Shown piece after piece: positions 777-18,600 of a DNA stretch of 32,000 bases. Both the position numbers and the translations under genes were made by a program. The first letter of the stretch is position 1. Each line of letters begins with the position of its first letter. Where the stretch lies: assembly GCF_000009705.1 (NCBI RefSeq), contig NC_003276.1, positions 300,001 to 332,000 of the forward strand, in the 5' to 3' direction. Below the pieces are notes generated by a model. That model saw nothing but the letters and a program-made list of their open reading frames with translations. It searched no databases and was not told the DNA's origin. The stretch is from Nostoc sp. PCC 7120 = FACHB-418 (GTDB lineage: Bacteria > Cyanobacteriota > Cyanobacteriia > Cyanobacteriales > Nostocaceae).

Positions 777-2987
777 GTGCGTGTCAAAACTCCCACTGTC
801 ATACAAATGGAAGCGGCCGAATGTGGAGCAGCTTCCCTAGCGATTATTCTTGCCTACTATGATAGCATTGTCCCCTTAGCCGAACTCCGCATTGAGTGCG
901 GAGTTTCCCGTGATGGGAGCAAAGCCTCTAATATCATTCTTGCTGCTCGACGCTATGGAATGGTTGCAGACGGCTTTAAAGCAGAACACCTAGAACAACT
1001 CCAAGACTTAACTCCCCCCTACATCGTTTTTTGGAACTTCAATCATTTTCTGGTAGTGGAAGGATTGAGCAAACATTGGGTGTTCCTCAATGACCCCGCT
1101 ACTGGTCCCCGCAGGGTTTCCTGGGAGGAATTTGACGAAAGTTTTACAGGGGTTGTCCTAGTGATGGAACCTGGTGCCGACTTTAACAAAGGCGGTCGCA
1201 AACCCAGTGTCATCTTAGGCTTGATAGACCGTTTGCGGGGTTCAATTGGTTCAATTTTATACTGCATTTTCGCCGGATTTTTCTTGGTGTTGCCCGGTTT
1301 AGCAATTCCGGTTTTCAGTCAGGTGTTTGTGGATCATGTTCTGGTGGAAAGTCGCACTGAATGGCTGCGTCCCCTAATTTTAGGGATGATTCTTACCACG
1401 GTGTTTCAAGGACTGCTGACACTACTCCGACTGCGCTATTTGAGAAAGTTGAGGATTAAGTTGGCTGTGGGAATGTCCACTCGCTTCCTGTGGCATATTC
1501 TGAGATTACCTGTGAGATTTTATGCCCAAAGGTATGCAGGAGAAGTTAGCAATCGCGCCAGTTTGAATAATAAGGTGGCTGAGGTGCTTTCCGGGCAATT
1601 GGCAACTACAGTTATTGATGTAGTTATGATCTTGTTCTACGCCCTAGTGATGTTTGCCTATGATTGGGTATTAACGTTAATTGGGATCTGTTTTACTGCG
1701 ATCAATGGGTTAGCCTTGCAATGGGTTGCTAGACATCGCGTAGATGCAAATATACGTTTGATACAGGATTGGGGAAAAGCAACTGCGGTGAGTATTGCAG
1801 CGATTCAGAGTATCGAAACGTTGAAAGCATCAGCTTTAGAGTCGGATTTCTTTTCCCGATGGTCTGGATATTATGCCAAAGCTGTTAGCGCACAGCAAGA
1901 TTTAGAAGTCACAAATCAAATATTAGGGATTTTGCCCATACTGCTGGCCTCTTTAACTTCGATGTTAATTTTAGTCGTTGGAGGTTGGCGGGTAATGGAT
2001 GGGAATCTCAGCATTGGGATGTTGGTGGCATTTCAAAGCTTGATGCTGAGTTTTCAGCAGCCTGTCAACACTTTAGTAGATTTCGGTACTACTCTCCAGG
2101 AATTAGAAGGGGATTTAAATCGCTTAGATGATGTGTTAAGCAATTCCCTTGATCCAGAGGTGGAGATGGTAAGCAGGGAAGCAGGGGAGCAGAGGGAGCA
2201 GGGGAGAGGGGGAGATGAGGAGAAATCCAAAATCGAAAATCCAAAATCGAAAATCCAAAATTTGCAAGGTTATGTGGAGTTACGAAATATCACTTTTGGT
2301 TACTCTCATATTGACCCGCCATTGATTGAGGACTTCAGTTTATCGTTGCAACCAGGACAAAGAGTAGCGTTGGTTGGTGCAAGTGGTTCGGGGAAATCAA
2401 CCTTGGCTAAATTAATCTGTGGACTTTATCAACATTGGGAAGGAGAAATTCTTTTCGACGGGATTAAAAGAAGCGAAATTCCGCGTCATGTGTTGGCGAG
2501 TTGTCTGTCGCTGGTAGAGCAGGATATCTTTTTATTTGGGGGGACGGTGCGGGATAACCTAACGTTATGGGATGCTACAGTTCCAGATGAGCAGCTTGTA
2601 CAAGCTTGTCAAGATGCAGCTATCCATGAAGCGGTAATGGCAATTCCGGGGGGATATGATGGGGAATTGTTGGAGGGAGGGGCTAATTTAAGTGGGGGAC
2701 AGCGCCAGAGGCTAGAAATTGCCCGTGCGTTGGTAAAAAATCCAGCTATTTTAGTAATGGATGAGGCGACATCTGCGTTGGATGCCCAGACAGAACAAAT
2801 TATTATGGAAAATCTGCGACGGCGCAACTGTAGTTGCATACTAGTAGCGCACCGTTTGAGTACGATTCGCGATTGTGATGAGATTATTGTTTTAGAACAG
2901 GGGAAGGTGGTGCAACGCGGGACTCACGATGAGTTATGGCAAGAAGGAGGAGTTTATGAGCGGTTAATTCGTGCTGAGGAACGATAG
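777..2987 (+). CDS. peptidase-C39-domain ABC transporter (PCAT; double-glycine peptide processing and export; NHLM-type peptidase/permease/ATPase subunit)
   Basis: 736-aa ORF. C39 motif QMEAAECGAAS (Cys codon 822-824), His in NFNHF (1044-1046), Asp in NDPA (1092-1094). Followed by a multi-TM ABC membrane domain. Walker A GASGSGKST, signature LSGGQRQR, Walker B ILVMDEATSALD, H-loop VAHRLS. The GTG start directly follows an in-frame TAA, so the start is uncertain. Confidence 0.95.
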   Translation: MRVKTPTVIQMEAAECGAASLAIILAYYDSIVPLAELRIECGVSRDGSKASNIILAARRYGMVADGFKAEHLEQLQDLTPPYIVFWNFNHFLVVEGLSKHWVFLNDPATGPRRVSWEEFDESFTGVVLVMEPGADFNKGGRKPSVILGLIDRLRGSIGSILYCIFAGFFLVLPGLAIPVFSQVFVDHVLVESRTEWLRPLILGMILTTVFQGLLTLLRLRYLRKLRIKLAVGMSTRFLWHILRLPVRFYAQRYAGEVSNRASLNNKVAEVLSGQLATTVIDVVMILFYALVMFAYDWVLTLIGICFTAINGLALQWVARHRVDANIRLIQDWGKATAVSIAAIQSIETLKASALESDFFSRWSGYYAKAVSAQQDLEVTNQILGILPILLASLTSMLILVVGGWRVMDGNLSIGMLVAFQSLMLSFQQPVNTLVDFGTTLQELEGDLNRLDDVLSNSLDPEVEMVSREAGEQREQGRGGDEEKSKIENPKSKIQNLQGYVELRNITFGYSHIDPPLIEDFSLSLQPGQRVALVGASGSGKSTLAKLICGLYQHWEGEILFDGIKRSEIPRHVLASCLSLVEQDIFLFGGTVRDNLTLWDATVPDEQLVQACQDAAIHEAVMAIPGGYDGELLEGGANLSGGQRQRLEIARALVKNPAILVMDEATSALDAQTEQIIMENLRRRNCSCILVAHRLSTIRDCDEIIVLEQGKVVQRGTHDELWQEGGVYERLIRAEER
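2173..2263 (+). repeat. in-frame low-complexity insertion in the TMD-NBD linker: purine-rich GCAGGGGA-like repeats followed by six AAAATC[C/G]-type heptamers
   Basis: 2222-2263 reads gaaatcc aaaatcg aaaatcc aaaatcg aaaatcc aaaattt (6 x 7 = 42 nt, in frame). It encodes ...EQGRGGDEEKSKIENPKSKIQNLQ between the membrane domain and the ATPase. Confidence 0.85.
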
Positions 2988-3112
2988 CCGAATTTAGACC
3001 AACGGGGTGCCAGGTATCGAAATTGCCAAAAGCCACATAAAACCAATTCGCAATTAAACTAAGCCACTCACAAGGGGTGGGGTTTTTACTACCTTGCGAT
3101 ACAAGGACTGTT

Positions 3113-3135
3113 TCGCCCACCAGGGGCGAGGTTTT
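3113..3135 (+). terminator. possible rho-independent terminator after the PCAT gene
   Basis: Stem tcgccc/gggcga (3113-3118 / 3124-3129) followed by gGTTTT. Short stem. Lies in a ~117-bp segment unique to the first repeat unit. Confidence 0.35.
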
Positions 3136-3162
3136 GAACCTTCACTTTTTGATAAATAGGTT

Positions 3163-3196
3163 AAAAGCCTATTGTTAAATCTTCTTAACAATGGGC
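3163..3196 (-). terminator. rho-independent terminator after precursor A
   Basis: 12-bp stem gcctattgttaa/ttaacaatgggc with loop atcttc. On the minus strand it is followed by TTTT (plus-strand aaaa at 3163-3166). Confidence 0.6.
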
Positions 3197-3259
3197 TGAG
3201 GTGCTTTAGTGATAAGCTGATGAGGAAAGAATACCTAACCCCGACTGCTTACTCGTTTC

Positions 3260-3391
3260 TCACTCAATCATCCAAGTAGGTCCGCCAGCTACACTATCCA
3301 GATGTTTCAAGCTGAGTGGTTGAAGTTGTGAAAGTTTCTTGTCTTGGGCTTTTTGGGCTGTGTTGGTTTTCGTCTGTTGTTTATCGGTCAT
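3260..3391 (-). CDS. double-glycine-leader precursor peptide A, 43 aa, core PTWMIE
   Basis: Hand translation: MTDKQQTKTNTAQKAQDKKLSQLQPLSLKHLDSVAGG|PTWMIE*. Leader has hydrophobics at -4, -7, -12 and -15 and GG at -2/-1. An in-frame TGA two codons upstream fixes the ATG. Below the ORF-track length cutoff. Confidence 0.8.
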   Translation of the reverse strand: MTDKQQTKTNTAQKAQDKKLSQLQPLSLKHLDSVAGGPTWMIE

Positions 3392-3442
3392 TGCTTTTCA
3401 CCCATTTTTATTTAATTGGAATAAGAGATTTTCACAATTGCA

Positions 3443-3450
3443 GCGATCGC
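3443..3450. repeat. HIP1 site GCGATCGC (example; more than 20 in the window)
   Basis: Exact octamer. Other copies include 6036-6043 and 9040-9047, and others near 9676, 10053, 10177, 10588, 11686, 11726, 12194, 15655, 16378, 16852, 17850, 19793, 27958, 28672, 28954 and 31456. Confidence 0.95.
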
Positions 3451-3469
3451 TCTGACTGTTCAGGGAACT

Positions 3470-3555
3470 CTCGTCACCCGCCATCCACGAGATTTTGAGC
3501 AAGCCCCTAAGTCCAGTATTTCATCAATTCTTAACAGATTGAGTCTGCCTTGAGC
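3470..3555 (-). pseudogene. probable decayed F-type precursor gene (unit A)
   Basis: By-eye alignment to the 3' two-thirds of gene F. Flanked by the homologous promoter and downstream spacer. Start codon and first ~20 codons are absent. Confidence 0.35.
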
Positions 3556-3568
3556 AAAGGTTACAGCG

Positions 3569-3577
3569 ATTCTATCA
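3569..3577 (-). promoter_or_regulatory. candidate extended -10 promoter (TGaTAGAAT) of unit A
   Basis: Plus-strand attctatca is TGATAGAAT on the minus strand. Conserved in four units and homologous to the F promoter. Confidence 0.4.
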
Positions 3578-3676
3578 GGGAGCAGGTCAAACTTGTCAGT
3601 TCAGGTGTACTATTTGTCTATGATCGCCTTAGATGACTCAGAACTTACGAAGCTCAAAGGTATTGTTCCACGATTC

Positions 3677-3739
3677 CACGATGAGTTATGGCAAGGAGGA
3701 GGAGTTTATGAGCGTTTAATTCGTGCTGAGAAACGATAG
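3677..3739 (+). pseudogene. duplicated 3'-end fragment of the PCAT gene (copy 1)
   Basis: Same length as 2925-2987 with a few substitutions. Reads HDELWQGGGVYERLIRAEKR* versus the genuine HDELWQEGGVYERLIRAEER*. No upstream ORF. Confidence 0.9.
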
Positions 3740-3800
3740 CCGAATTTAGACCAACAGGGTGCCAGGTATCGAAATTGCCAAAAGCCACATAAATTAAGTT

Positions 3801-3834
3801 AAAAGCCCATTGTTAAATCTTCTTAACAATGGGC
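3801..3834 (-). terminator. rho-independent terminator after precursor B
   Basis: Perfect 12-bp stem gcccattgttaa/ttaacaatgggc (3805-3816 / 3823-3834), 6-nt loop, minus-strand TTTT tail. Confidence 0.6.
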
Positions 3835-3900
3835 TGAGGTGCTTTAGTGATAAGCTGATGATGAAAAAATACCCAACCCCGACTTCTTGTTTCTACAAGA

Positions 3901-4035
3901 TCAGATCGCCCAAACAACAACCCGTCCGCCAGCTACACTATCCAGATGTTTCAAGCTGAGTGGTTGAAGCTGTGAAAGTTTCTTGTCTTGGGCTTTTTGG
4001 GTTGTCTTGGTTTTCGGCTGTTGTTGGTTGGTCAT
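3901..4035 (-). CDS. double-glycine-leader precursor peptide B, 44 aa, core RVVVWAI
   Basis: MTNQQQPKTKTTQKAQDKKLSQLQPLSLKHLDSVAGG|RVVVWAI*. Lies inside track ORF 3901..4110. Start placed at the ATG conserved in all copies. Confidence 0.8.
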   Translation of the reverse strand: MTNQQQPKTKTTQKAQDKKLSQLQPLSLKHLDSVAGGRVVVWAI

Positions 4036-4113
4036 TGCTTCTACCTTACTTTTATTGAATTGGAATAAGAGATTTTCACAATTGCGATGATCGCTGTTGC
4101 TGTTAAGCAAATT

Positions 4114-4199
4114 CTAGTCATCCGCCATCCACGAGATTTTGAGCAAGCCCCTAAGTCCAGTATTTCATAAATTTGTAACCAATTGAGTCTGCCTTGAGC
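4114..4199 (-). pseudogene. probable decayed F-type precursor gene (unit B)
   Basis: Ends ...tggatggcggatgacTAGaatttgcttaacagcaa, matching the F end ...tatacggatgacTAGaatttgcttaacagcaa. The upstream part gctcaaggcagac resembles gcccaagacaag of F. No start codon. Confidence 0.45.
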
Positions 4200-4212
4200 A
4201 AAGGTTACAGCG

Positions 4213-4221
4213 ATTCTATCA
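4213..4221 (-). promoter_or_regulatory. candidate extended -10 promoter (TGaTAGAAT) of unit B
   Basis: Same 9-mer and same context (ctgacaagtttgacctgctccc upstream on the minus strand). Confidence 0.4.
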
Positions 4222-4312
4222 GGGAGCAGGTCAAACTTGTCAGTTCAGGTGTACTATTTGTCTGAGATCGCCTTAGACGACTCAGAACTTACGAAGCTCA
4301 AAGGCACTGTTC

Positions 4313-4372
4313 CCCGATGAATTATGGCGAGGAGGAGTTTATGAGCGGTTAATTCGTGCTGAGGAACGATAG
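4313..4372 (+). pseudogene. duplicated 3'-end fragment of the PCAT gene (copy 2)
   Basis: Reads PDELWRGGVYERLIRAEER*. Has a 3-nt deletion relative to 2925-2987. Followed by the same ccgaatttagaccaacagggtgccaggtatcgaaattgccaaaagccaca tail. Confidence 0.9.
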
Positions 4373-4433
4373 CCGAATTTAGACCAACAGGGTGCCAGGT
4401 ATCGAAATTGCCAAAAGCCACATAAATTAAGTT

Positions 4434-4467
4434 AAAAGCCTATTGTTACATCTTCTTAACAATGGGC
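4434..4467 (-). terminator. rho-independent terminator after precursor C
   Basis: Same hairpin, with small variations, at 4438-4467 plus the T tail on the minus strand. Confidence 0.55.
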
Positions 4468-4532
4468 TGAAGTGCTTTAGTGATAAGCTGATAGGAAAGA
4501 ATACCCAACCCCAACTTCTCATTTCTACAAGA

Positions 4533-4667
4533 TCAGATCGCCCAAACAACCAGCATTCCGCCAGCTACACTATCCAGATGTTTCAAGCTGAGTGGTTGAA
4601 GCTGTGAAAGTTTCTTGTCTTGGGCTTTTTGGTCTGTGTTGGTTTTCGTCTGTTGTTTATCGGTCAT
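4533..4667 (-). CDS. double-glycine-leader precursor peptide C, 44 aa, core MLVVWAI
   Basis: Hand translation, codon by codon: MTDKQQTKTNTDQKAQDKKLSQLQPLSLKHLDSVAGG|MLVVWAI*. Not in the ORF track. Confidence 0.8.
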   Translation of the reverse strand: MTDKQQTKTNTDQKAQDKKLSQLQPLSLKHLDSVAGGMLVVWAI

Positions 4668-4767
4668 TTCTTCTACCTCACTTTGATTTAATTGAAATTA
4701 ACAAATGTTTACAATTGCGGCGATACCTTCGGTAAGCTTCGCTAACGCTCTTACTGTTCAGGGAACT

Positions 4768-4853
4768 CTCGTCACCCGCCATCCAAGAGATTTTGAGCAA
4801 GCCCCTAAGTCCAGTATTTCATAAATTCGTAACCAATTGAGTCTGTCTTGAGC
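4768..4853 (-). pseudogene. probable decayed F-type precursor gene (unit C)
   Basis: Same as unit A. Confidence 0.35.
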
Positions 4854-4866
4854 AAGGGTTACAGCG

Positions 4867-4875
4867 ATTCTATCA
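4867..4875 (-). promoter_or_regulatory. candidate extended -10 promoter (TGaTAGAAT) of unit C
   Basis: Same 9-mer. Confidence 0.4.
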
Positions 4876-4966
4876 GGGAGCAAGTCAAACTTGTCAGTTC
4901 ATGTGTAATATTTATCTGTGATCGCCTTAGACGACTCAGAACTTACGAAGCTCAAAGGTATTGTTC

Positions 4967-5029
4967 CACGATGAGTTATGGCAAGAAGGAGGAGTTTATG
5001 AGCGTTTAATTCGTGCTGAGGAACGATAG
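4967..5029 (+). pseudogene. duplicated 3'-end fragment of the PCAT gene (copy 3)
   Basis: Reads HDELWQEGGVYERLIRAEER*, identical at protein level to the genuine C-terminus. Confidence 0.9.
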
Positions 5030-5090
5030 CCGAATTTAGACCAACAGGGTGCCAGGTATCGAAATTGCCAAAAGCCACATGAATTAAGTT

Positions 5091-5124
5091 AAAAGCCCAT
5101 TGTTAGACCTTCTTAACAATGGGC
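5091..5124 (-). terminator. rho-independent terminator after precursor D
   Basis: Same hairpin at 5095-5124 plus the T tail on the minus strand. Confidence 0.55.
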
Positions 5125-5189
5125 TGAGGTGCTTTAGTGATAAGCTGATAGGAAAGAATACCCAACCCCAACTTCTCATTTCTACAAGA

Positions 5190-5324
5190 TCAGATCGCCC
5201 AAACAACAACCTGTCCGCCAGCTACACCATCCAGATGTTTCAAGCTGAGTGGTTGAAGTGGTGAAAGTTTCTTGTCTTGGGCTTTTTGAGTTGTGTTGGT
5301 TTTCGTCTGTTGTTTATCGGTCAT
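5190..5324 (-). CDS. double-glycine-leader precursor peptide D, 44 aa, core QVVVWAI
   Basis: MTDKQQTKTNTTQKAQDKKLSPLQPLSLKHLDGVAGG|QVVVWAI*. Lies inside track ORF 5190..5372. Confidence 0.8.
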   Translation of the reverse strand: MTDKQQTKTNTTQKAQDKKLSPLQPLSLKHLDGVAGGQVVVWAI

Positions 5325-5427
5325 TTCTTCTACCTTACTTTTATTTAATTGGAATAAGAGATTTTCATTCACAATTGCGGCGATACCTTCGGTAAGCTTC
5401 GCTAACGCTCTTACTGTTCAGGGAACT

Positions 5428-5513
5428 CTCGTCACCCGCCATCCAAGAGATTTTGAGCAAGCCCCTAAGTCCAGTATTTCATCAATTCTTAACAGGTTGA
5501 GTCTGCCTTGAGC
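5428..5513 (-). pseudogene. probable decayed F-type precursor gene (unit D)
   Basis: Same as unit A. Confidence 0.35.
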
Positions 5514-5526
5514 AAAGGTTACAGTG

Positions 5527-5535
5527 ATTCTATCA
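5527..5535 (-). promoter_or_regulatory. candidate extended -10 promoter (TGaTAGAAT) of unit D
   Basis: Same 9-mer. Confidence 0.4.
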
Positions 5536-5626
5536 GGGAGCAGGTCAAACTTGTCAGTTCAGGTGTAATATTTATCTGCAATCGCCTTAGACGACTCAGA
5601 ACTTACGAAGCTCAAAGGCACTGTCC

Positions 5627-5689
5627 CCCGATGAATTATGGCGAGAAGGAGGAGTTTATGAGCGGTTAATTCGTGCTGAGGAACGATAG
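5627..5689 (+). pseudogene. duplicated 3'-end fragment of the PCAT gene (copy 4)
   Basis: Reads PDELWREGGVYERLIRAEER* and has the same downstream tail. Confidence 0.9.
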
Positions 5690-5749
5690 CCGAATTTAGA
5701 CCAACAGGGTGCCAGGTATCGAAATTGCCAAAAGCCACAAAAATAGGTT

Positions 5750-5783
5750 AAAAGCCCATTGTTAAATCTTCTTAACAATGGGC
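5750..5783 (-). terminator. rho-independent terminator after precursors F and E
   Basis: Perfect copy of the hairpin at 5754-5783 plus the T tail on the minus strand. Confidence 0.6.
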
Positions 5784-5849
5784 TGAGGTACTTTAGTGAT
5801 AAGCTTATGAAGAAAGAATACCCGGCCCCGACTTCTCGTTTCTACAAGA

Positions 5850-5984
5850 TCAGACCGCCCAAACAAGCTGCTGTCCGCCAGCTACACTATCCAGATGTTT
5901 CAAGCTGAGTGGTTGAAGCTGTGAAAGTTTCTTGTCTTGGGCTTTTTGGGCTGTCTTGGTTTTTGTCTGTTGTTTATTGGTCAT
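5850..5984 (-). CDS. double-glycine-leader precursor peptide E, 44 aa, core QQLVWAV
   Basis: Hand translation: MTNKQQTKTKTAQKAQDKKLSQLQPLSLKHLDSVAGG|QQLVWAV*. Not in the ORF track. Confidence 0.8.
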   Translation of the reverse strand: MTNKQQTKTKTAQKAQDKKLSQLQPLSLKHLDSVAGGQQLVWAV

Positions 5985-6062
5985 TGCTTTTCACCCACTT
6001 TTATTTAATTGGAATAAGAGATTTTCACAATTGCGGCGATCGCTCTTGCTGTTAAGCAAATT

Positions 6063-6197
6063 CTAGTCATCCGTATAAGCTACCCAACCTGCGGCTACAC
6101 CCTCTAACTGTTTCAAGCTTACTGGTTGAAGCTGTGAAAGTTTCTTGTCTTGGGCTTTTTGGGCTGTCTTGGTTTTCGGCTGTTGTTGGTTGGTCAT
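6063..6197 (-). CDS. divergent precursor peptide F, 44 aa, AG cleavage variant, core WVAYTDD
   Basis: Hand translation: MTNQQQPKTKTAQKAQDKKLSQLQPVSLKQLEGVAAG|WVAYTDD*. GAGG lies 8 nt upstream of the ATG. Sits only 78 nt upstream of gene E with no hairpin between them, so the two are probably co-transcribed. Confidence 0.75.
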   Translation of the reverse strand: MTNQQQPKTKTAQKAQDKKLSQLQPVSLKQLEGVAAGWVAYTDD

Positions 6198-6234
6198 TGC
6201 TTTGACCTCACTTTTATTTAAAAGGGTTAAAGCG

Positions 6235-6261
6235 ATATTATCACGCTAGGAACTTGTGCAA
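6235..6261 (-). promoter_or_regulatory. candidate promoter of precursors F and E (TTGCAC, 15-nt spacer, TGaTAATAT)
   Basis: On the minus strand: -35-like TTGCAC (6256-6261), extended -10 TG (6242-6243) and TAATAT (6235-6240). Lies about 40 nt upstream of the F ATG in the divergent region shared with the second ABC gene. Confidence 0.45.
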
Positions 6262-6307
6262 GTGATATCCTCGTTGTTAATGACAGAAAACAAGCCCATC
6301 TGGTCAA

Positions 6308-8449
6308 ATGACAGAAAAAGCCCTACGGGAACTAGCCTCTGTCCTCAATCCCGCCGCTAATCTTCCCCAAGGAGAAACACCCTTACTAGTTGCTGTGGGT
6401 GCTGTAGGAAAAGCATTGGGGATAACTATTCGCCCACCTGCAAAAACTGAAATTCTTCTTAGCGGACTCCCGGAAACCCTCTTAGGAATTGCCCGTGCTT
6501 CTGGTTTCCGCATCCGTCGAGTTACCCTCATACCCAACTGGTGGAAAACAGATTGCGGTTCTCTAGTAGCTTTTACTCAAGCAGAAAATCGCCCTGTTGC
6601 TCTACTCAGGGTAAAAGCTAACAAGTATGAGATACTTGACTCTGTAGATTTGACGTACACTCCTGTCAACCGCCAAACTGCTGCACAACTCGCACCCATC
6701 GCCTATACTTTTTATCGCCCCTTACCAGACAAAGAAATTACATTCTTAGATATGCTGCAATTTACCCTTAGAGGGAGTACAGCAGATTTGCTGAAAATCC
6801 TCTGGGTGGGAGTATTTGCAACTTTGTTCGGGATGTTTACCCCGCAAATAACAGGCATTCTCATCGACTATGCCATTCCCGATGCGAACCGCCAATTATT
6901 AATTGAGATGGGTTTAGGGTTGTTAGCCGCTAGCTTTGGGGTGACAATCTTTCAACTGACTCAAGCTTTTGCCATTTTGCGAGTACAAACCCAAGTCAGT
7001 TACGATACTCAAGCTGCGGTTTGGGATCGACTCCTCAAACTTAAACCCGCCTTTTTTCGCTCCTATTCCACAGGGGATCTCTATAATCGCGTCTCCGCTA
7101 TGACTCAGATTCGCAACCGATTGAGCGGTAGCATTCTGCGAACCTTATTCACGAGTATATTCTCATTGTTAAATTTGGGATTGCTATTAATCTATAGTTT
7201 TCCTCTGGCATTAGTAGCAATGGCGATCGCTTTGGTAATAGTTCTGATTACTACTATTATTAGTCTGCTTACCCGCCGAAAATTACGTCCCCTCCAGCAG
7301 CTTTCGGGAGACATTCTGGGACTAACAGTGCAGTTAATCGGTGGAGTCTCTAAACTGCGAGTTGCTGCTGCTGAATCAGAGGCGTTTGCTTACTGGGCAA
7401 AAAAATACACTCAGCAGGTAAAACTGATGTTAAGTACCCAATTCATTGAAGATGTGCTGACCACCTTTAATGTTATGCTGCCAGCAGTCAGTTCAATTGC
7501 GCTGTTTGGATTGTCTGTTTCCTTGCTGGGAAAGGCTGAGGGAGGAACGGGATTATCTACGGGGACATTTCTCGCCTTTAATACTGCCTTTGGTACTTTT
7601 ATCGCCAGTGCCACAAGATTAAGCAACACCCTCATAGATATTTTAGAAATCACGATTTTATGGGAACGCACCCAACCCATTTTAAAAACAAAACCAGAAG
7701 TTGATGCTGATAAATTCCATCCTGGCAAGCTTTCTGGTGAAATTAAATTAAACCAAGTTAGCTTTCGCTACCGCCAAGATAGTCCTTTAGTTTTAGAGAA
7801 TATCGCGCTAGAAGCCAAAGCCGGGGAATTTATTGCGATTGTCGGAGCATCGGGAAGTGGAAAATCCACTGTTCTAAGGTTATTACTGGGATTTGAAACC
7901 CCAGAGGCAGGAACAATCTCCTATGATGGCAGAGATTTGTCGGGATTAGATATTGCAGCCGTGCGGCGACAATTGGGAGTAGTGCTGCAAAATGGGCGAA
8001 TTATGAGTGGTTCGATTTGGGAGAATATTGCTGGGGGCGCAATTGTTACCCAAGATGAAGCTTGGTCAGCATTGCAGATGGCTGGATTAGCGGAGGATGT
8101 GGAAGCAATGCCTATGGGGATACATACTATTATTTCCGAAGGAGGGGGCAACGTTTCAGGAGGACAGCGCCAGAGGTTATTTATCGCCCGTGCGTTGGTA
8201 CATAAACCGCAGATTTTACTGTTTGATGAGGCGACATCGGCGTTAGATAATCGCACCCAGGCGATCGTGACTCAAAGTTTAGCACAATTGGGAGTCACTC
8301 GCGTAGTGATTGCCCATCGTTTAAGTACAATTCGTCATGCAGACATGATTTATGTGCTGCAAGCAGGGAAGATAGTCCAGCAGGGAAGTTTTGAGGAATT
8401 AGCAGCCGTTGAGGGGTTATTTGCTAATTTGATGGCGCGACAGAGATAG
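6308..8449 (+). CDS. ABC transporter permease/ATPase without an active peptidase motif (NHLM-type second ABC subunit)
   Basis: 713-aa ORF. The ~150-aa N-terminal domain lacks the Q..ECG peptidase motif. Followed by a TM domain, Walker A GASGSGKST, signature VSGGQRQR, Walker B LLFDEATSALD and H-loop IAHRLS. Confidence 0.93.
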   Translation: MTEKALRELASVLNPAANLPQGETPLLVAVGAVGKALGITIRPPAKTEILLSGLPETLLGIARASGFRIRRVTLIPNWWKTDCGSLVAFTQAENRPVALLRVKANKYEILDSVDLTYTPVNRQTAAQLAPIAYTFYRPLPDKEITFLDMLQFTLRGSTADLLKILWVGVFATLFGMFTPQITGILIDYAIPDANRQLLIEMGLGLLAASFGVTIFQLTQAFAILRVQTQVSYDTQAAVWDRLLKLKPAFFRSYSTGDLYNRVSAMTQIRNRLSGSILRTLFTSIFSLLNLGLLLIYSFPLALVAMAIALVIVLITTIISLLTRRKLRPLQQLSGDILGLTVQLIGGVSKLRVAAAESEAFAYWAKKYTQQVKLMLSTQFIEDVLTTFNVMLPAVSSIALFGLSVSLLGKAEGGTGLSTGTFLAFNTAFGTFIASATRLSNTLIDILEITILWERTQPILKTKPEVDADKFHPGKLSGEIKLNQVSFRYRQDSPLVLENIALEAKAGEFIAIVGASGSGKSTVLRLLLGFETPEAGTISYDGRDLSGLDIAAVRRQLGVVLQNGRIMSGSIWENIAGGAIVTQDEAWSALQMAGLAEDVEAMPMGIHTIISEGGGNVSGGQRQRLFIARALVHKPQILLFDEATSALDNRTQAIVTQSLAQLGVTRVVIAHRLSTIRHADMIYVLQAGKIVQQGSFEELAAVEGLFANLMARQR

Positions 8450-8788: not shown

Positions 8789-10237
8789 ATGTCTGACAAA
8801 AAACGCAGTATCTTTCGTCAACAAGCACTTGATCGCCTATCTTCTCCAGAACGTTTGGATCATTTGATGCAAGTTGTTAACCACAAAGATTGGTTATCTT
8901 TGGGCGGATTGGCTATTTTTGGGGTTTTAGGTGTACTCTGGAGCGTGTTTGGTAATATTCCCATCACAGTCACAGGAAAGGGAGTGTTAATTAATCCCCG
9001 GCGGGTGGTGCAGTTTCAGTCTCCGATATCGGGACAGGTGCGATCGCTAAATGTTAAAGATGGACAATGTGTAGCCAAGGATGATATTCTCGCCACCATC
9101 GATCCCTCTCAACAAAAACAGCAATTACAGCAACAACGGGATAAACTAGCTCAATTACAACGACAAGTCCAAAAAACTACTTTACTGCGACAACAACAAA
9201 CCCAGTTAGAAACAGAAGCGATTGCTGCTGAAAGAACAAGTTTAAAACAACGGTTGCAAAATACTCAAAAATTAGCTCCTCGCCTGCAAGATGAAGGATT
9301 AAATAGCATTGACCAACAGCGTCTTAGTCTTCAAGAACGTCTCAAAGATGTAGAAGAATTAACGCCTGTACTCCAAAAAAGAGTTGAAAAACAACGGGAA
9401 TTGCAAAAGCAAGGAGCAATTTCCGAAGAACAAGTTTTACAAGCAGAACAAGAATATCGCCAAACCCGTCAGAATATCTCAAAGATTAAAGCACAGTTAC
9501 AGCAATTACGAGTCCAAGAAACAGAACAACAGCAAAAATATTTGGAAAATAAAAATAATATTACCCAAATTAACGCTGAGTTAGAAAAATTAAATACCCG
9601 TAGCAAACAACTAGAACAGAATAATCTAGCAGCTGATAATACTGAAAACAATCAAATTCAGGAATTGCAGCAAGCGATCGCTCGCTGGGAAAAAGAAGTT
9701 GCAGACAACAGTACCATTAAAAGTTCTCACGCTGGATGTATTGTAGAAATAACCGCTACTCTAGGGCAATATCTCAGTCCAGGCAACCGTCTAGGAACTT
9801 TGCAAATATCTGGACAAGCCAGCGAAATGATGAGCGTTGCTTATTTTAGGGTACAAGATGGCAAGCAAATTAAACCAGGAATGCCGATTTTAATTACACC
9901 AGATACGGTCAAGCGGGCAAGATTTGGGGGGATTGTCGGGAAAATTACTAATATTTCAGCCTTTCCTGTCACCTCGGAAGGTGCAAGTTCTGTAGTAGGA
10001 AACCCAGAATTAGTCCAAAAAGTGATGGATGGGGAAGGAGGGAAAATAGAGGCGATCGCGCAATTAAAACTTGACCCTAAGAACTTTAGCGGTTATGAGT
10101 GGTCATCTTCTGATGGGCCAAAGTTGGCAATTTCTCCAGGAACAACTACCACTGTCAGAGTAACAGTAGAAGAGCGATCGCCCATCACTTTTGTTTTGCC
10201 AATTTTAAGGGAGTGGAGTCGGCTAGAAAATCTTTGA
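8789..10237 (+). CDS. HlyD-family membrane fusion / secretion adaptor protein (NHLM-type)
   Basis: 482-aa ORF. N-terminal FRQQALDRLSSPERLD, a single TM helix (WLSLGGLAIFGVLGVLWSVFG), barrel/lipoyl segments around a ~200-aa Q/E/K-rich coiled coil. Confidence 0.9.
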   Translation: MSDKKRSIFRQQALDRLSSPERLDHLMQVVNHKDWLSLGGLAIFGVLGVLWSVFGNIPITVTGKGVLINPRRVVQFQSPISGQVRSLNVKDGQCVAKDDILATIDPSQQKQQLQQQRDKLAQLQRQVQKTTLLRQQQTQLETEAIAAERTSLKQRLQNTQKLAPRLQDEGLNSIDQQRLSLQERLKDVEELTPVLQKRVEKQRELQKQGAISEEQVLQAEQEYRQTRQNISKIKAQLQQLRVQETEQQQKYLENKNNITQINAELEKLNTRSKQLEQNNLAADNTENNQIQELQQAIARWEKEVADNSTIKSSHAGCIVEITATLGQYLSPGNRLGTLQISGQASEMMSVAYFRVQDGKQIKPGMPILITPDTVKRARFGGIVGKITNISAFPVTSEGASSVVGNPELVQKVMDGEGGKIEAIAQLKLDPKNFSGYEWSSSDGPKLAISPGTTTTVRVTVEERSPITFVLPILREWSRLENL

Positions 10238-10361: not shown

Positions 10362-11207
10362 TTGGAGTTGATTTGCTATCGAATCTGGACGAAAACCACT
10401 GAATTAAAACAAGTGGAATATGAATACACCACCTTCCAGGCGCAAAAAATCAGTTCTGCCCAATCTAGGGATAATACATCACCAGATAACTTTGCCCAGA
10501 AGGATATCTCCAAAGAAGAAAATCCAGCTACAGCAACTATTACAGTTAATGCTGTTGAGATACCTGAATTAACCGAGCAGGAGCAGAGCGATCGCCTGTT
10601 TTTAAAACGTAAGGTCGAAAGGGCGTTTTTTGAAGCGGGGAAGGCACTCATGGAACTGCGCGATCGCAGATTGTACCGTTCGACCCATGCAACATTTGAG
10701 GAGTATTGTAAGGACAGGTTTGGATACAACCGTTCTCGTTCCTACCAGCTAATTGATGCCGCTATCGTTGTGGACAATCTGCAAAAATGTCCACAATTTG
10801 TGGACATTTTACCAACAGCCGAAGGTCAAGTACGCCCTTTAACAAAGCTTGAACCGCAAGAACAGCAAGAGGCTTGGCCAACTGCTGTGGAAGAAACTGG
10901 TGGTAAAGTGCCAACTGGCCGCATCGTTAAAGATGTGGTGCAGCGAATTATGGAGCGCACCCAAGTACCTAATAGTTATCAGATTGGCGAAGTGTGCCAA
11001 ATCTTAGCTAAAGATAACCCCGAACTCAGAGGCAAAGGCGGGTGTTGGTGCATAGTGGTTGCTGTCCATGACTTCAGTTGTACCGTTAGAATTTGGGACG
11101 GAGAACTGACGGCTGGGCTGAAGCATCTCAAGTCCTTCGATTACTTGCCTGTGGAATGTCAGCAGATGCAGGAGATTTGCGATGGCGTTCCGCAAGAGCG
11201 TAGCTGA
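10362..11207 (+). CDS. hypothetical protein with a ParB/KorB-like helix-turn-helix segment
   Basis: 281-aa ORF with a TTG start and no in-frame ATG before residue ~95. Contains the motif LMELRDRRLYRSTHATFEEYCKDRFGYNRSRSYQLIDAAIVVDNL, typical of ParB-like DNA-binding proteins. Both start and 3' end are uncertain. Confidence 0.5.
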   Translation: MELICYRIWTKTTELKQVEYEYTTFQAQKISSAQSRDNTSPDNFAQKDISKEENPATATITVNAVEIPELTEQEQSDRLFLKRKVERAFFEAGKALMELRDRRLYRSTHATFEEYCKDRFGYNRSRSYQLIDAAIVVDNLQKCPQFVDILPTAEGQVRPLTKLEPQEQQEAWPTAVEETGGKVPTGRIVKDVVQRIMERTQVPNSYQIGEVCQILAKDNPELRGKGGCWCIVVAVHDFSCTVRIWDGELTAGLKHLKSFDYLPVECQQMQEICDGVPQERS

Positions 11208-11466
11208 TCGCATCGGTCGGATGTACCCCGGTGATTTAGAAGGGTCGGTGCAGAGGTTTTTGGAGTCGCTAGGCAAGCTAAACTGACGCAATATTTCTTA
11301 AACTTGAGATTTCCTCGATAATAATCATAGAGTTAAGTATATCCACTGATTTTGCACAATCTTTATAAAGAATTTATTCCTAAAGATAAGTATATAAGTG
11401 TATTCTCGTATCAATGTCGATAAAATCACATTGAATTTTATTTTTACGTATATAAATCAGAGTAAT

Positions 11467-12207
11467 ATGATGGAAAATTTTCAAGTTCAAGAACTGCTGA
11501 TTGTGATCGCTGTTCGGCAGCAAAACCCCAGTATTTTGACCGCAGACTTTCTCAAGTATACGGGGATTATCCCCAGTGACTGGGAATTAGCTAGACCACC
11601 AGTTTTAACCAACACTGCGGCTCAGGTTGTTTACCAGAATGGTGTGAGCATTGTTGCAGAGGTCAATAGGGTGATTTTTGCAGAAGCGATCGCCAATAAA
11701 GAAGCAAGCGATGTGCAAATTGCGGCGATCGCTCATAAATATATTGAAACAGTCAAACAAGTGGACTATCAGGGCGTGGGAATTAACTTACGAGGACTTG
11801 CACCTTACGAGCCAGAAAACTTGGGCGGACGCAACTACACGTTTAGTAAACTTCTCCAACCAGGAGCATGGCAGGATTTTGGTTCTGCGCCTGTAGAAGC
11901 GTCAATGAGGCTAGTTTATACGCTGAACGAGACTCAGCTATATCTGGATATTAATGAAGCTCAATTACAGTATCCAGACAAAACTACTAAGCCAGCAGTT
12001 TTGTTTTCGGCTAACTTCAGTCGAGCGATAAATCACGAAGAACCAGCAGCACGGTTGGCAGCTATCAGTGCAGTGATTGACAAGTGGCAAGGTGATGTTA
12101 AAACACTCAAAGAGCTTGTCAATAGTAAGTTTTTGGATAATCAAAGCTATTCCATCAATACGGCAACGACTGAGACGCTGTTATTTCCTGCTGCGATCGC
12201 TGGGTAA
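11467..12207 (+). CDS. hypothetical protein, ~246 aa
   Basis: Track ORF 11398..12207. The first ATG (ATGATG at 11467) is preferred over the GTG at 11398, which lies in AT-rich promoter-like sequence. No motif recognised. Confidence 0.55.
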   Translation: MMENFQVQELLIVIAVRQQNPSILTADFLKYTGIIPSDWELARPPVLTNTAAQVVYQNGVSIVAEVNRVIFAEAIANKEASDVQIAAIAHKYIETVKQVDYQGVGINLRGLAPYEPENLGGRNYTFSKLLQPGAWQDFGSAPVEASMRLVYTLNETQLYLDINEAQLQYPDKTTKPAVLFSANFSRAINHEEPAARLAAISAVIDKWQGDVKTLKELVNSKFLDNQSYSINTATTETLLFPAAIAG

Positions 12208-13208: not shown

Positions 13209-13999
13209 AGACGACTCTCTAGATTAGCCAAGTAAGCCTTGGGGTCTCTGCGAAATCGATACTGTTCAATTCTGGCTTTGTGGTGTTTTTGCAATTGAGA
13301 GCGTAATTCGAGCCAAGTATGAATATCAACTTGTGCTAAATCAGATGCGGTAAAAGAATGAAGCTTAGTAGCTATCGCACAGGCAAGTTTGACAGAACCA
13401 CGAATAACGAGAGATGAGGGGGCAACCTTACGACCGGTACAACGACGTTGATGATAACGTAGCATACCAAAAGCGTGTTCTAAGTCATTATTAGTTCTAG
13501 GAAAATCTTCAATTTCATAACAATGAAAAAGTCCAGACCAGTAGCTGTGGGTGGTTTTTATAAAGTTATCGATTGCAGTGTTCAGGGTACCAGCTTTCTG
13601 CTTTTGTTGAGACATTTCTGTCAACAGTTGCTGATAACTTTGTTTGACCCCAGCAGCATCAAGACCTATTTTATTGTTGAGAATATTACTAGCTTTATCA
13701 ACCCACTGATATGCAACCCTCACAGGTGAAAATAAAGATGCAGTAGCAGATAATCCCTTAGCTAGAAGGTGTTTTAGGTTAACTAAAGGTGGTGGTAAAG
13801 CACTTCTTTTTTCCATCCTTTCTAAGCTTTGTTCTATCAAAGTCAAATTTTCTTGTAACTTTAATCCAGATGCCTCTAACGGTGGATGTCCATCATTGGT
13901 TATAGAACTACGGACTGCCGAGCAATAATCTTCAATAATAGTCACCAAATCCTTATCTTCATTGGTAACACTACGTTCAATTTCTCGTAATCCTCTAAC
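13202..13999 (-). CDS. transposase, C-terminal part (other frame, open back to the A10 run)
   Basis: The frame of track ORF 13202..13948 stays open upstream and reads KKKVRGLREIERSVTNEDKDLVTIIEDY... from the A run. Its stop lies inside the left IR. Confidence 0.7.
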   Translation of the reverse strand, partial: VRGLREIERSVTNEDKDLVTIIEDYCSAVRSSITNDGHPPLEASGLKLQENLTLIEQSLERMEKRSALPPPLVNLKHLLAKGLSATASLFSPVRVAYQWVDKASNILNNKIGLDAAGVKQSYQQLLTEMSQQKQKAGTLNTAIDNFIKTTHSYWSGLFHCYEIEDFPRTNNDLEHAFGMLRYHQRRCTGRKVAPSSLVIRGSVKLACAIATKLHSFTASDLAQVDIHTWLELRSQLQKHHKARIEQYRFRRDPKAYLANLESRLL

Positions 14000-14783
14000 T
14001 TTTTTTTTTCAATTCCTTTTTTGCATTTCTATCCGCCTCATATATGGGTTTAATTGCTTCTTTCAGGTAATGGTAATGACATAAACCATGAGCAATTTTA
14101 GGTAATGCTAACCCAACAGCTTTACGAATTGATTGTTGTCCATCACTAACAACTCCATCAATTGGTACATCCAGTGTATTAGCCACTTCTAATAATAACG
14201 CTACTAAATCTTCATTCCTTGATGATAATAAAGTTTTAGCAAGTAAAATTTCTCCTGATAGACAATCTCGAATTACCCATAATACCTCATGTCCAATTTC
14301 TGGCTGCATCCCATCAATGGCTAATATCACCCGTCCTTGATTAGCCACTATTGCTTTTAATCTTTTATGGTCTTTTAGCCATAAAGAAAGTAACTCGTCA
14401 TATCTGTCAATTAAGTGTGTGACCGTTCGTTTACTTATACATATACCTTTTAATTCAAGGTGAGTATGTATTTGAGGAACACTTCTATGTTCCTGGTAGC
14501 GTAATGCTCCTATATAAGCAATCACATCCAAACCAAATTCGTTCTGTGGTAGAGCGAGTGACCCTTCTTGCTCTGGTCGATATGCTTTTTTATACCGCAT
14601 ACATGACTTATTTTGACATCGCCGAATTTTTAGCTGTAGTTCTACTACCCCATTTAGCGTTCTTATATGTCGAGGATTATTGTATTCATTCCACATTGCT
14701 TGACCACACGAAGGGCATTTTTTTTGAACACAATCGAGTACTTCAAACGATGTTGCTTCTGGTTTTAAACTTTTTCTTACCAA
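13995..14783 (-). CDS. transposase, N-terminal part (zinc-finger and first half of the DDE domain)
   Basis: 262 aa with a TTG start. Contains CPSCG...C..KSC zinc-finger-like pairs, then LAIDGMQPE and VVSDGQQS Asp motifs. Ends in KKKS* inside an A10 run. Confidence 0.75.
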   Translation of the reverse strand: MVRKSLKPEATSFEVLDCVQKKCPSCGQAMWNEYNNPRHIRTLNGVVELQLKIRRCQNKSCMRYKKAYRPEQEGSLALPQNEFGLDVIAYIGALRYQEHRSVPQIHTHLELKGICISKRTVTHLIDRYDELLSLWLKDHKRLKAIVANQGRVILAIDGMQPEIGHEVLWVIRDCLSGEILLAKTLLSSRNEDLVALLLEVANTLDVPIDGVVSDGQQSIRKAVGLALPKIAHGLCHYHYLKEAIKPIYEADRNAKKELKKKS

Positions 14784-15699: not shown

Positions 15700-18600
15700 T
15701 TGGGAGAAATTGACATCCTCCAAGGTGGTGCAGGTGGAGACATTTATGTTATCGGTAATGCAGCTACTACTTTCTATGATGATGGCAACACTACCACCGC
15801 AGGGACAACAGATTACGCTCGGATTGTTGGCTTTAATGCTAGCGAAGATATCATCCAACTAACAGGCCCAAAAAGTAACTACATCCTGGGGACATCTCCC
15901 ATCAATGGCATCACTGGCACGGCAATTTACATTAACAAACCCACTGGCGAACCCGATGAACTCATCGCCATTATTGAAGGAGTTACAGAATTAAACCTGA
16001 ATTCCAACGTTTTCATCGAAGCGCAAAACGAATCAGGTTTACTTTCTTTTAGTCAGGCTACTTTTAGCACTCCTGAAAGTAACAACGCCACCATTACAAT
16101 TACCCGTGAACAGGGGACTGTTGGTACAGTTAGTGTAACTTTGGCTCTGACTAACGGTACAGCTACAGCTCCTAGTGATTACGACAACTCTAACATTATC
16201 GTTAACTTTGCTGATGGCGAAATAAGTAAAACCGTTACTATCCCCATCGTTAACGATACTATTTTTGAACCAAACGAGATTGTCAATCTTACCCTGATTA
16301 ACCCCACTGGTGGTGCATCTTTGGGAACTCAGAGAACAGCGACTTTAACTATTGTTGATAACGATGCTCGTCCTGGTGCGATCGCCTTTAGTGCAGCTAA
16401 CTACAGTGTTAATGAAAATGGTACACCTGTCACAGCAATCACTATTAACCGGACTGGTGGTAGTGATGGTGCAGTTAGTGTTACCTTAACTCCTAGTAAC
16501 GGTACAGCAGTAGCACCTAGTGACTTTAATAGCAACCCAATTATAGTTAACTTTGCTAACGGAGAAACTACTAAAATAGTTGCCATTCCTATAGTTAATG
16601 ACACTGTTTCTGAACCAAATGAAACAATTAATTTAACCCTCAGTAATGCCACAGATGGAGCAACCATTGGCGCACAAAATACTGCCGTATTAACAATTAT
16701 TGATAACGATCCTTTGCCTGGAACTCTTGCGTTCAGTAGTTCCAGCTACAGCACCAATGAAGACGGTACACCTGTTGCGGCTGTGACTATTACCCGGACA
16801 GGCGGTGCAAGCGGCGCAGTTAGCGTTACTCTGACACCTACTAATGGAAGTGCGATCGCCCCCGATGACTACAGTAACACTCCCATTACAGTTAACTTTG
16901 CCAATGGAGAAACTAGTAAAACTGTTAATTTAACTCAGGTAAGTAAAGCTTTATCTTTTGATGGGGTTAATGATTATGTCAATGTAGGAGCAAAATCAGG
17001 TTTAGAAGTTTCTACAGATATAACGATTGAAGCATGGATTAATCCTACTGGTAGTGGAAGCAGTACTATTGAAGGTGGAATTATTGTTAATAAGGAAGGA
17101 GAATATGAAGTAGCTCGTTTTTCTGATGGCACTATTCGATGGGCATTTGCGAATAATAACCCCACTTGGCTATGGATTAATACGAGTTATGTTGCTCCCT
17201 TAAATCAATGGACTCATATTGCTGTAACTTATGAATTAGGAGTAATTAAAACCTATTCTAACGGTGTTTTAGTTCATACCTATAATGGTTCAGGAAATAT
17301 AGGAGATTTTCACGCTAATGAAGATGATTTTCGGATTGGTGGTAGACAGATAGGAAACCAATTATTCCAAGGCTCAATTGATGATGTTCGTATCTGGAAT
17401 AAAGCTAGAACTCAAGCCGAAATACAAGCAGATTTGATTCGTGAATTAACAGGCAAAGAAACTGGCTTAATTGGTTATTGGAATTTTAATTCAATTAATG
17501 GTACTACAGTTCAAGATTTAACTGGCAATCAAAATAATGGGGCAGTTCTTGAAGCACAAAATGTAATAGGTATTGTTACAACCTCACTAATAACAGATGA
17601 CAGTATTTATGAACCCACAGAAACCATTAATCTAACCTTAACTAATCCTACTAACGGAGCAAATTTAGGTACACAAAAAACAGCAACTCTAAATATTGTT
17701 GATAATGATGCTGTAGCAGGAATTTTTCAGTTTAACAACGTCAGCTATGCGATTAATGAAAATGGTACACTTGTAACTGCTGTAACTTTAAACCGCACAG
17801 GGGAGAGTGATGGTGCAGTTAGTGTCACAGTTAACTTAAGTAATGGTAGTGCGATCGCCTCTGTTGACTACGATAATACCCCAATCACTGTCAACTTTGC
17901 CAATGGCGAAACGAGTAAAATTGTCACCATTCCCATAGTTAACGACAATCAATTTGAACCCAATGAAACCATCAATTTAAGTCTGTCTAATCCCACAGGT
18001 GGTGCAACTGTAGGAACTCAAAATACAGCCATACTAACCATTGTTAATGACGATTTACCTCAACCTGGCACGATTAACTTTAACATTAACAATTACACCG
18101 TTAACGAAAACGGTACAGCCAGTATTAACCTAGTTCGCACAGGGGGAAGCGATGGAGAAGTTAGTGTTACTTTAACACCATCAGACGGTACAGCAACAGC
18201 CGGAAGTGACTACAATAATTTACCTATCACCGTTACCTTTGCCAACGGAGAAACCAGTAAAACAATTAACTTAATATCGCAAAATCAGGGGCTATTTTTT
18301 GATGGCAATGATTATGTAGATAATCCTGCAAATTTCTCAGAGACTAAAGACACCTTCACAATAGAATTGTGGGCTAATCCTACTGCAACTAGAGCTTCCA
18401 CTCCCGAAACGAGTTCTGGTGTTAATGCCTTTTTTAATCAAAAATATGCAATTTTTCCGAAACAGGGTTTAGGAACTCTAGGAACCAGTAATGATGTTTA
18501 CGCTGGAATTTCTATTGGTACAAATGGAGTAACTATCTCTGAACACACACTTAACTATATGCCATCTGTATTAGTGTATAACACTGCATTGTCAGGATGG

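Follow-up and report, generated by a model that had tools for sequence, protein, structure and literature searches.

Relics of a transporter gene's 3' end delimit the units of a tandem peptide-precursor array in Nostoc sp. PCC 7120

How did the end of a transporter gene come to be repeated several times over, each time beside a small gene on the opposite strand? The question is posed by plasmid alpha of Nostoc sp. PCC 7120, of which we analysed positions 300001-332000 (32,000 nt; here "the window", in which a BA000020 coordinate is the window coordinate plus 300,000). There the gene alr7295, which encodes a peptidase-containing ATP-binding cassette (ABC) transporter (PCAT), is followed by a tandem array of six minus-strand precursor genes, A to F, whose products have double-glycine (GG) leaders. 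An original prediction, made from the sequence alone, proposed that the array grew by tandem duplication of a unit beginning inside the PCAT gene. We find that the array very probably arose through one illegitimate founding duplication, followed by expansion through unequal crossing-over; the stubs of the PCAT gene that it contains are most likely non-functional scars.

One join at every boundary of the array

A repeat search with 2925-3041 as reference, together with a unit alignment, revealed a 117-nt segment in five same-strand copies with start-to-start spacings of 752, 633, 657 and 660 nt (Table 1). The PCAT C-terminus reads HDELWQEGGVYERLIRAEER before its stop codon; relic 3 encodes the same peptide, while relics 1, 2 and 4 read HDELWQGGGVYERLIRAEKR, PDELWRGGVYERLIRAEER and PDELWREGGVYERLIRAEER, again each with a stop, meaning that the stubs encode the resident C-terminus with zero to three changes. 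The lower ungapped identity of relic 2 reflects a 3-nt deletion. Judged on sequence, the four 117-nt matches (96-97% identity) are far beyond chance, and across all five copies the 50 nt after the coding part carry at most one substitution per copy.

Each copy opens a unit, and the units lie head-to-tail: on the plus strand, 63 nt of relic and 54 nt of flank are followed by a hairpin, the 3' untranslated region (UTR), the minus-strand precursor gene, about 80 nt of its upstream sequence and a spacer, about 190 nt long, up to the join with the next unit. There are five such units (U0 to U4) for the six precursor genes. The left boundary of the amplified unit, which we call X, is position 2925, 63 nt inside the PCAT gene; its right boundary, Y, is the end of the spacer. 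All four internal joints are one join, AAAGGYAYTGTYC/CMCGATGAR (the slash marks the point of joining), found as ...CTCAAAGGTATTGTTC/CACGATGAG or as ...CTCAAAGGCACTGTYC/CCCGATGAA, where the PCAT gene itself reads ...CGCGGGACT/CACGATGAG. At the U0/U1 joint there is an extra 8-nt slip, in which TCCACGAT is duplicated. The two variants alternate along the array (alpha, beta, alpha, beta), which suggests that a block of two units was duplicated in one or more of the steps.

Head-to-tail units that share the same novel join at every internal boundary are the pattern of tandem amplification from one founding duplication. The resident PCAT 3' end matches the relics at 95-98% identity, that of the next orthologue at 81%; this proximity, together with the recurrence of one join at every boundary, indicates that the array was amplified in situ and not assembled by separate insertions. 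Because the PCAT C-terminus is orthologous to that of species without an array (L001, L002 and L003), the PCAT gene was the donor. The original prediction had named the four extra copies, their coordinates, spacing and readable peptide, the roughly 50 nt of shared downstream sequence, a duplication junction inside the transporter gene and an origin in situ; all of these agree with what we found.

Classical tandem duplication-amplification leaves one novel join at each boundary, proceeds by unequal crossing-over and ends in homogenised or mosaic units. The Nostoc array likewise repeats one join at every unit boundary; however, classical amplifications are unstable and consist of near-identical units, whereas this array is old, its units having diverged by 5-23%, and has become fixed in the clone family of PCC 7120.

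We therefore favour a course of events in which illegitimate recombination would first have joined Y, about 285 nt upstream of a precursor gene, to X, 63 nt before the PCAT stop, yielding a duplicate that carried a stub of the transporter gene. The resulting direct repeats, more than 600 nt long, would then have expanded by homologous unequal crossing-over; gene conversion would have scrambled the units into mosaics; and deletions would have trimmed some of them, giving compact joints such as that between E and F.

Table 1. Features of the precursor array and its export genes (window coordinates; a slash marks the predicted cleavage point of a precursor)
Feature	Position	Strand	Remarks
PCAT gene	777..2987	+	alr7295, BAB78379.1, 736 aa; exact-sequence look-up; source of relics
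Master copy of repeated segment	2925..3041	+	last 63 nt of PCAT gene and 54 nt of 3' flank; starts U0 (2925-3676)
U0-only segment, about 113 nt	3042..3153	+	unit alignment, terminator scan, fold
PCAT relic 1	3677..3793	+	97% ungapped identity; coding 3677-3739; starts U1 (3677-4309)
PCAT relic 2	4310..4426	+	86% ungapped; coding 4313-4372, one codon deleted; starts U2 (4310-4966)
PCAT relic 3	4967..5083	+	97%; coding 4967-5029; starts U3 (4967-5626)
PCAT relic 4	5627..5743	+	96%; coding 5627-5689; starts truncated U4
Terminator-like hairpin of precursor A	3166..3197	-	fold, terminator scan, repeat search
Equivalent hairpins	3804-3835, 4437-4468, 5094-5125, 5753-5784	-	fold, terminator scan, repeat search
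Conserved 22-nt element	3556..3577; copies 4200-4221, 4854-4875, 5514-5535	-	local alignment against shuffles
Diverged 22-nt element	6222-6243	-	TGATAATAT; fifth element, upstream of F
Precursor A	3260..3391	-	MTDKQQTKTNTAQKAQDKKLSQLQPLSLKHLDSVAGG/PTWMIE; exact protein in public records
Precursor B	3901..4035	-	...VAGG/RVVVWAI; CDS39 of Wang et al. 2011
Precursor C	4533..4667	-	...VAGG/MLVVWAI; CDS40 of Wang et al. 2011
Precursor D	5190..5324	-	...VAGG/QVVVWAI; in BA000020 the 60-aa asl7296 (5190..5372)
Precursor E	5850..5984	-	...VAGG/QQLVWAV; CDS41 of Wang et al. 2011
Precursor F	6063..6197	-	divergent, ...LEGVAAG/WVAYTDD; no hairpin or relic of its own
Second ABC subunit, NHLM_micro_ABC2	6308..8449	+	alr7297; TIGR03797 1025 bits, cutoff 709; right-hand boundary of array
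HlyD-type adaptor, NHLM_micro_HlyD	8789..10237	+	TIGR03794 338 bits, cutoff 156; third part of export cassette

Mosaic units and their precursor genes

The original prediction divided the units into two subtypes, A/C/D and B/E-F. This division stands for the leader N-terminus and the 80 nt upstream, where informative sites group U1 with U4, but other segments group differently: U2 pairs with U4 at the relic start, U0 with U4 in the hairpin and ribosome-binding region, and U2 with U3 in the 3' UTR and a 21-nt indel, while the spacer contains all three possible two-plus-two splits. By the four-gamete test, 194 of 351 site pairs are incompatible, and the minimum number of recombination events (Rmin) is at least 9 in the first 592 alignment columns plus at least 3 in the spacer. 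These site patterns support well a history of repeated gene conversion in which the units are mosaics, not two lineages, in keeping with the further proposal of more than one round of duplication or gene conversion. Mean pairwise divergence is highest in the core and 3' UTR (22.9%), followed by the upstream 80 nt (14.6%), spacer (6.6%), hairpin (6.0%), leader (5.4%), relic coding part (5.0%) and 54-nt flank (1.5%).

The 21-nt indel, ACCTTCGGTAAGCTTCGCTAA, lies in U2 and U3 (4727-4747 and 5387-5407), and these array copies are the only ones among the loci examined. It shares an 11-mer, CTTCGCTAACG, with an insert in the 113-nt segment of a related locus (L095, described below), whose second insert is the inverted complement; these sequences resemble the small dispersed repeats described in Nostocales.

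One precursor gene, one hairpin and one promoter-like element had been predicted for each unit. This is the case in U0 to U3; the last unit departs from it, as it holds both E and F and has no element for E. The minus-strand unit hairpins fold at -11 to -18.8 kcal/mol (z -2.1 to -5.6), and UUUUAAC follows each. The 22-nt element, which reads TGATAGAAT... on the minus strand and is extended -10-like, scores z 3.3-6.2 against shuffles in its copies and, by its sequence, may serve as a promoter. A full unit thus looks like a minus-strand transcription unit complete in itself: a putative -10-like element and a ribosome-binding region precede the GG-leader precursor, and a terminator hairpin follows it. 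U4 is truncated: it is homologous to the other units up to about 6069, the point at which F begins. F joins the upstream region of E directly, its last three codons and stop (TDD and stop) lying in sequence shared with the upstream regions of other units, and E and F are probably co-transcribed.

U0 alone contains the segment of about 113 nt that follows the master copy. It holds two plus-strand terminator-like hairpins of the PCAT gene (3064-3080, then a T run), and a direct repeat, ATAAA, stands on either side of it at 3037 and 3152; missing from all relic-bearing copies, the segment occurs inside the array only beside the intact PCAT gene. No further copy was found in any related locus examined, and we rejected a mobile element on that ground.

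The precursor genes, taken from the list of open reading frames (ORFs), have 43-44 codons and specify 37-residue leaders with cores of 6-7 residues. We took as a PCAT substrate a leader that ends in GG (or GA/GS), is preceded by L-x-x-x-L-x-x-V and is encoded next to a C39 transporter; here LSLKHLDSVAGG is conserved in A to E, F has VAAG, and the genes adjoin the PCAT gene, so these are double-glycine leaders. No NHLP or Nif11 model of NCBIfam matched A, B or F at E <=1, and the 'N11P' leader label of Wang et al. 2011 was not reproduced by NCBIfam models. XyeA-type triceptide precursors were considered and rejected (TIGR04495, 14-18 bits against a cutoff of 33). Such precursors also call for an adjacent radical SAM maturase (XyeB), and there is no radical SAM gene in the window or in the 10 kb upstream (as seen in assembly L081), nor a modification enzyme near the precursors. 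The family is very small, with 15 proteins in 5.8 billion, and homologues elsewhere keep the leader while the core is highly variable. After cleavage behind the double glycine, which the exporter would carry out, the predicted products would be peptides of 6-7 residues, mostly hydrophobic and Trp-containing, and the array likely supplies more, and more varied, substrates to the exporter.

Related loci and competing explanations

The protein of the second ABC subunit (ABC2) occurs on many contigs, and eight independent assemblies found through it (L081-L088) span the array. Over stretches of up to 5.7 kb these match the window colinearly (99.93-99.98%), and unit number and order are unchanged. 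They comprise the complete plasmids CP183474.1 and AP018217.1 (Trichormus variabilis NIES-23), three FACHB drafts, and JGI and ENA assemblies. As all eight belong to one clone family, they demonstrate the correctness of the assembly, not evolutionary stability.

One of them is unusual in its exporter genes. In NIES-23 (L082), the PCAT gene is split by an IS605-family tnpA/tnpB element at window position 2427/2428 (L082 4412-6023) and the HlyD gene by another TnpB element (L082 13216-14427); its exporter genes are interrupted and its precursor array is intact, making this strain a natural exporter mutant.

Outside the clone family unit number varies, as the comparison envisaged in the original prediction brought out, with loci of one, four and at least six precursors. 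A sister strain (L091/L092), whose PCAT is 98.5% identical, has the same Y/X join, GGTAATGTTC/CACGATGAG, with other cores and layouts: at least six precursors (cores PPAINGDGM, PTLYGDM, PHIYNE, PTWMIE and ATFSDPFGGGYVKTL, and a further one cut by a contig end), two relics with the shared join, compact joints that have neither relic nor hairpin, and a PCAT gene that lacks the adjoining 113-nt segment (L091). Since both strains have the join and the units diverge more (5-15%) than the strains do (about 1.5%), the founding event predates the strain split. L095 has a single precursor (RNSIWVI) between ABC2 and a PCAT gene that retains the 113-nt segment; this precursor agrees with F in its 5' part and upstream sequence (108/110 nt) and with the A-E type in its 3' part. 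This allele is either the ancestral state or a collapsed array. In a more distant pair, L093/L094 (PCAT 85%), four genes form a compact array that contains no relic.

Among 80 related PCAT loci we found no arrayed copies of the PCAT 3' end, and only a Calothrix-type locus has a different, short relic. In the closest orthologues from other genera, Stigonema (87%) and Xenococcus (84%), ABC1 adjoins ABC2 with no precursor between. A scan for the join in a metagenome collection, which evidently contains no samples from these strains, gave no match. Neither did a search for the array among the plasmids of PLSDB, a set without the record of this plasmid.

The relic of the Calothrix rhizosoleniae-type loci comes from the H-loop region of the PCAT (RQRNCSCILVAHRLSTIRD), is about 60 nt long and abuts the stop of a single homologous precursor (L098, 5896-5955 versus 6250-6310; L003, 12752-12793 versus 12080-12122). 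In L003, a Uma2-like pseudogene lies between the true PCAT end and the relic. Here the PCAT 3' region was partly duplicated a second time, independently, next to the precursor family.

Several observations weigh against our account of the array and its units. About 250 nt of each unit, from the ribosome-binding region to the join, have no detectable source in the single-precursor allele or in the window, the 22-nt element excepted, so a present-day intergenic region like that of L095 was not simply duplicated in the founding event. For the spacer, the sole match elsewhere in the window is a weak one to the upstream region of F (6205-6244). The copies lack the 113-nt terminator segment of U0, which calls for an additional deletion or insertion; the polarity of this event between the ATAAA repeats is ambiguous, with the segment present in L095 and absent from L091. 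A strict sigma-70 consensus scan of the window found no promoter, and the peptide products are predicted from genes only. Finally, the units differ unusually little in the 54 nt that follow the PCAT stop (1.5% divergence against 5-15% elsewhere), which could hint at a function or at homogenisation by the master copy.

Two proposals about the spacer were tried. As a decayed precursor gene it found no support, with z <1.7 in local and global alignments against shuffles; its positions 17-75 resembled the 3' half of the leader by eye, and L092 has a real precursor at that position. The other proposal, which put Y inside the 5' end of ABC2 and so extended the unit over the full intergenic region and into stubs of the genes on either side, was rejected on a z of about 0 (distal spacer against 6244-6420).

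The conservation of the flank leads to the first alternative explanation, in which the relics and the 54-nt flank are functional, either giving read-through minus-strand transcripts of the array four additional segments antisense to the 3' end of the PCAT mRNA, which would couple precursor and exporter expression, or acting as homology handles for cassette exchange with the 3' end of the transporter gene. Transcript data bear on this, and they also speak for our own account in so far as the precursor strand is transcribed. In the entries for this locus in Dataset S1 of Brenes-Alvarez et al. 2023 (PMC10287535), TU03861, a transcriptional unit (TU) without an annotated gene, is antisense to TU03858 (alr7292-alr7295), to three unannotated TUs (TU03862-03864) and to TU03865 (alr7297); 24 h after nitrogen step-down TU03861 is down two-fold and TU03863 is up. 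Being antisense to both transporter TUs, TU03861 implies, as far as these entries go, that the precursor strand is transcribed in PCC 7120 and overlaps both. Its antisense overlap with the alr7295 TU is 50 nt or more, and the same entries place three plus-strand TUs without annotation within the array. That the flank is the most conserved part of the unit, and that the first unit of L091 looks like a recombinant between the true PCAT end and a relic, are also consistent with function. However, conservation among five related copies has no statistical weight and is explained by conversion from a selected master copy; a deleted codon and non-conservative changes are found among the relics; there are units that look functional but have no relic (in L091, in L092 and F in the window); and an Rfam search returned nothing above noise. 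We consider functional relics improbable, and slightly more so the specific proposition that stubs and flank were kept for function, whether as reiterated antisense within TU03861 to the 3' end of the alr7295 mRNA or as recombination handles for the shuffling of peptide cassettes. Were the handles real, the Calothrix-type PCAT relic would reflect a general mechanism of cassette exchange, not coincidence.

A second alternative draws on orphan modules. Arrays of orphan cdiA-CT/cdiI and rhs-CT modules consist of 3'-end stubs of a large gene, each with a small gene, downstream of the intact gene; the stubs encode alternative, divergent C-termini and arise by displacement. By analogy, incoming DNA would have recombined stepwise inside the PCAT 3' end, each time pushing the old end and its precursor downstream. 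The arrangement fits, with 3' stubs each followed by a small gene downstream of an intact gene, as does the abutment of a second, different PCAT 3' relic on a precursor in Calothrix-type loci. But independent events would give different joints, whereas all joins are the same Y/X junction; and the relics, closer to the resident gene than to the nearest orthologue by the identities given above, encode the resident C-terminus, so that nothing was replaced. The Nostoc stubs thus differ from those of an orphan-module array, and we judge displacement to be very unlikely, preferring the in situ amplification from one founding join.

An assembly artefact, in the form of a collapsed, expanded or chimeric repeat, was the objection raised with the original prediction and can be dismissed. 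Short-read assemblers can be misled by repeats of this kind (about 650 nt, about 90% identical), and some metagenome contigs (L089, L090) break inside the array, but the eight assemblies, from different projects and including CP183474.1 and AP018217.1, agree on unit number and order, and divergence between units (5-23% by segment) suffices for their unique placement.

The export cassette, earlier records and significance

The alr7295 product combines C39 peptidase (PF03412), ABC membrane (PF00664) and ABC ATPase (PF00005) domains in one protein and scored 1202 bits against TIGR03796 (NHLM_micro_ABC1; NCBIfam cutoff 853), which establishes it as a PCAT of this family. With an ABC2 subunit, for which we required the absence of a peptidase domain, and an HlyD-type adaptor encoded alongside it, the locus contains a three-gene export cassette of the NHLP type.

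The annotation of the PCAT start varies in public records between GTG at 777 (736 aa) and ATG at 807 (726 aa). An ATG-initiated ORF in a different frame (748-840, MSPKTYHFIKC...) overlaps it, which could mean an N-terminal frameshift or merely an uncertain start. The linker between membrane and ATPase domains is coded at 2172-2261 by tandem 7-8-nt repeats (AGCAGGGG five times, AAATCCA 5.6 times), which produce a Gly/Glu/Lys-rich insert. Among related loci the length of the PCAT tblastn match varies from 2136 to 2325 nt of DNA.

Right after the HlyD gene come two conserved ORFs, 10362-11207 (281 aa) and 11398-12207 (269 aa), which had no match in Pfam or NCBIfam and accompany the cassette in all PCC 7120-type assemblies. 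Just downstream of the cassette are a MULE-like transposase remnant (13995-14783, minus strand) and a 5297-aa ORF (15700-31593, plus strand). The latter has Calx-beta, Laminin_G_3 and CARDB domains (precomputed Pfam matches of the corresponding L081 gene) and tandem repeats of 27 nt and longer near its 3' end, and may be a type I secretion substrate.

In our literature search the locus turned up only in supplements, and neither its locus tags nor the leader sequence in main texts. Wang, Fewer and Sivonen (2011; PMC3140520) listed precursors B, C, D (asl7296) and E beside a C39 ABC transporter as a group V cluster (supplementary file 5, BA000020 303901-304035, 304533-304667, 305190-305372 and 305850-305984), together with the ORF of the U4 relic, 305603-305689 forward, as the putative precursor 'CDS42'. 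Precursors A and F are missing from that listing; the text of the paper uses neither 'tandem' nor 'duplication', and an amplification scar is not described in it. ORFs that end in relics are also called as small genes in several public assemblies (window 3593-3739 and 5603-5689; L081 7298-7432; L087 7286-7432). Without conserved start codons and frames, they are most likely annotation artefacts.

The system resembles the NHLP/Nif11 export cassette (Haft et al. 2010; PMC2887384) in that all three transport proteins score well above curated cutoffs; it differs in its 37-residue leaders without an NHLP or Nif11 match, its cores of 6-7 residues and the absence of a modification enzyme nearby. Tandem small GG-motif genes beside a C39 ABC exporter and HlyD are likewise found in ebfG1-4/PteB of Synechococcus elongatus PCC 7942 (Parnasa et al. 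2016; PMC4997328). Those genes, however, have no sequence relation to the Nostoc ones, EbfG are longer, secreted, biofilm-linked proteins, and the accessible parts of the reports (PMC4997328, PMC12267927) mention no transporter-gene relics.

The mechanism is thus ordinary tandem amplification at a partly known locus, and no new kind of system. Its scar fixes the boundaries of a peptide-gene expansion in a widely used model organism, establishes that the expansion arose in situ, and makes apparent how short ORFs have been misread in public annotation, with relics taken for genes or for a "precursor" and two real precursors absent from the 2011 list. A small natural series for leader-conserved, core-variable diversification, by the routes of duplication, conversion and deletion, is provided by strains that have a single precursor, four genes in a compact array, or at least six precursors.

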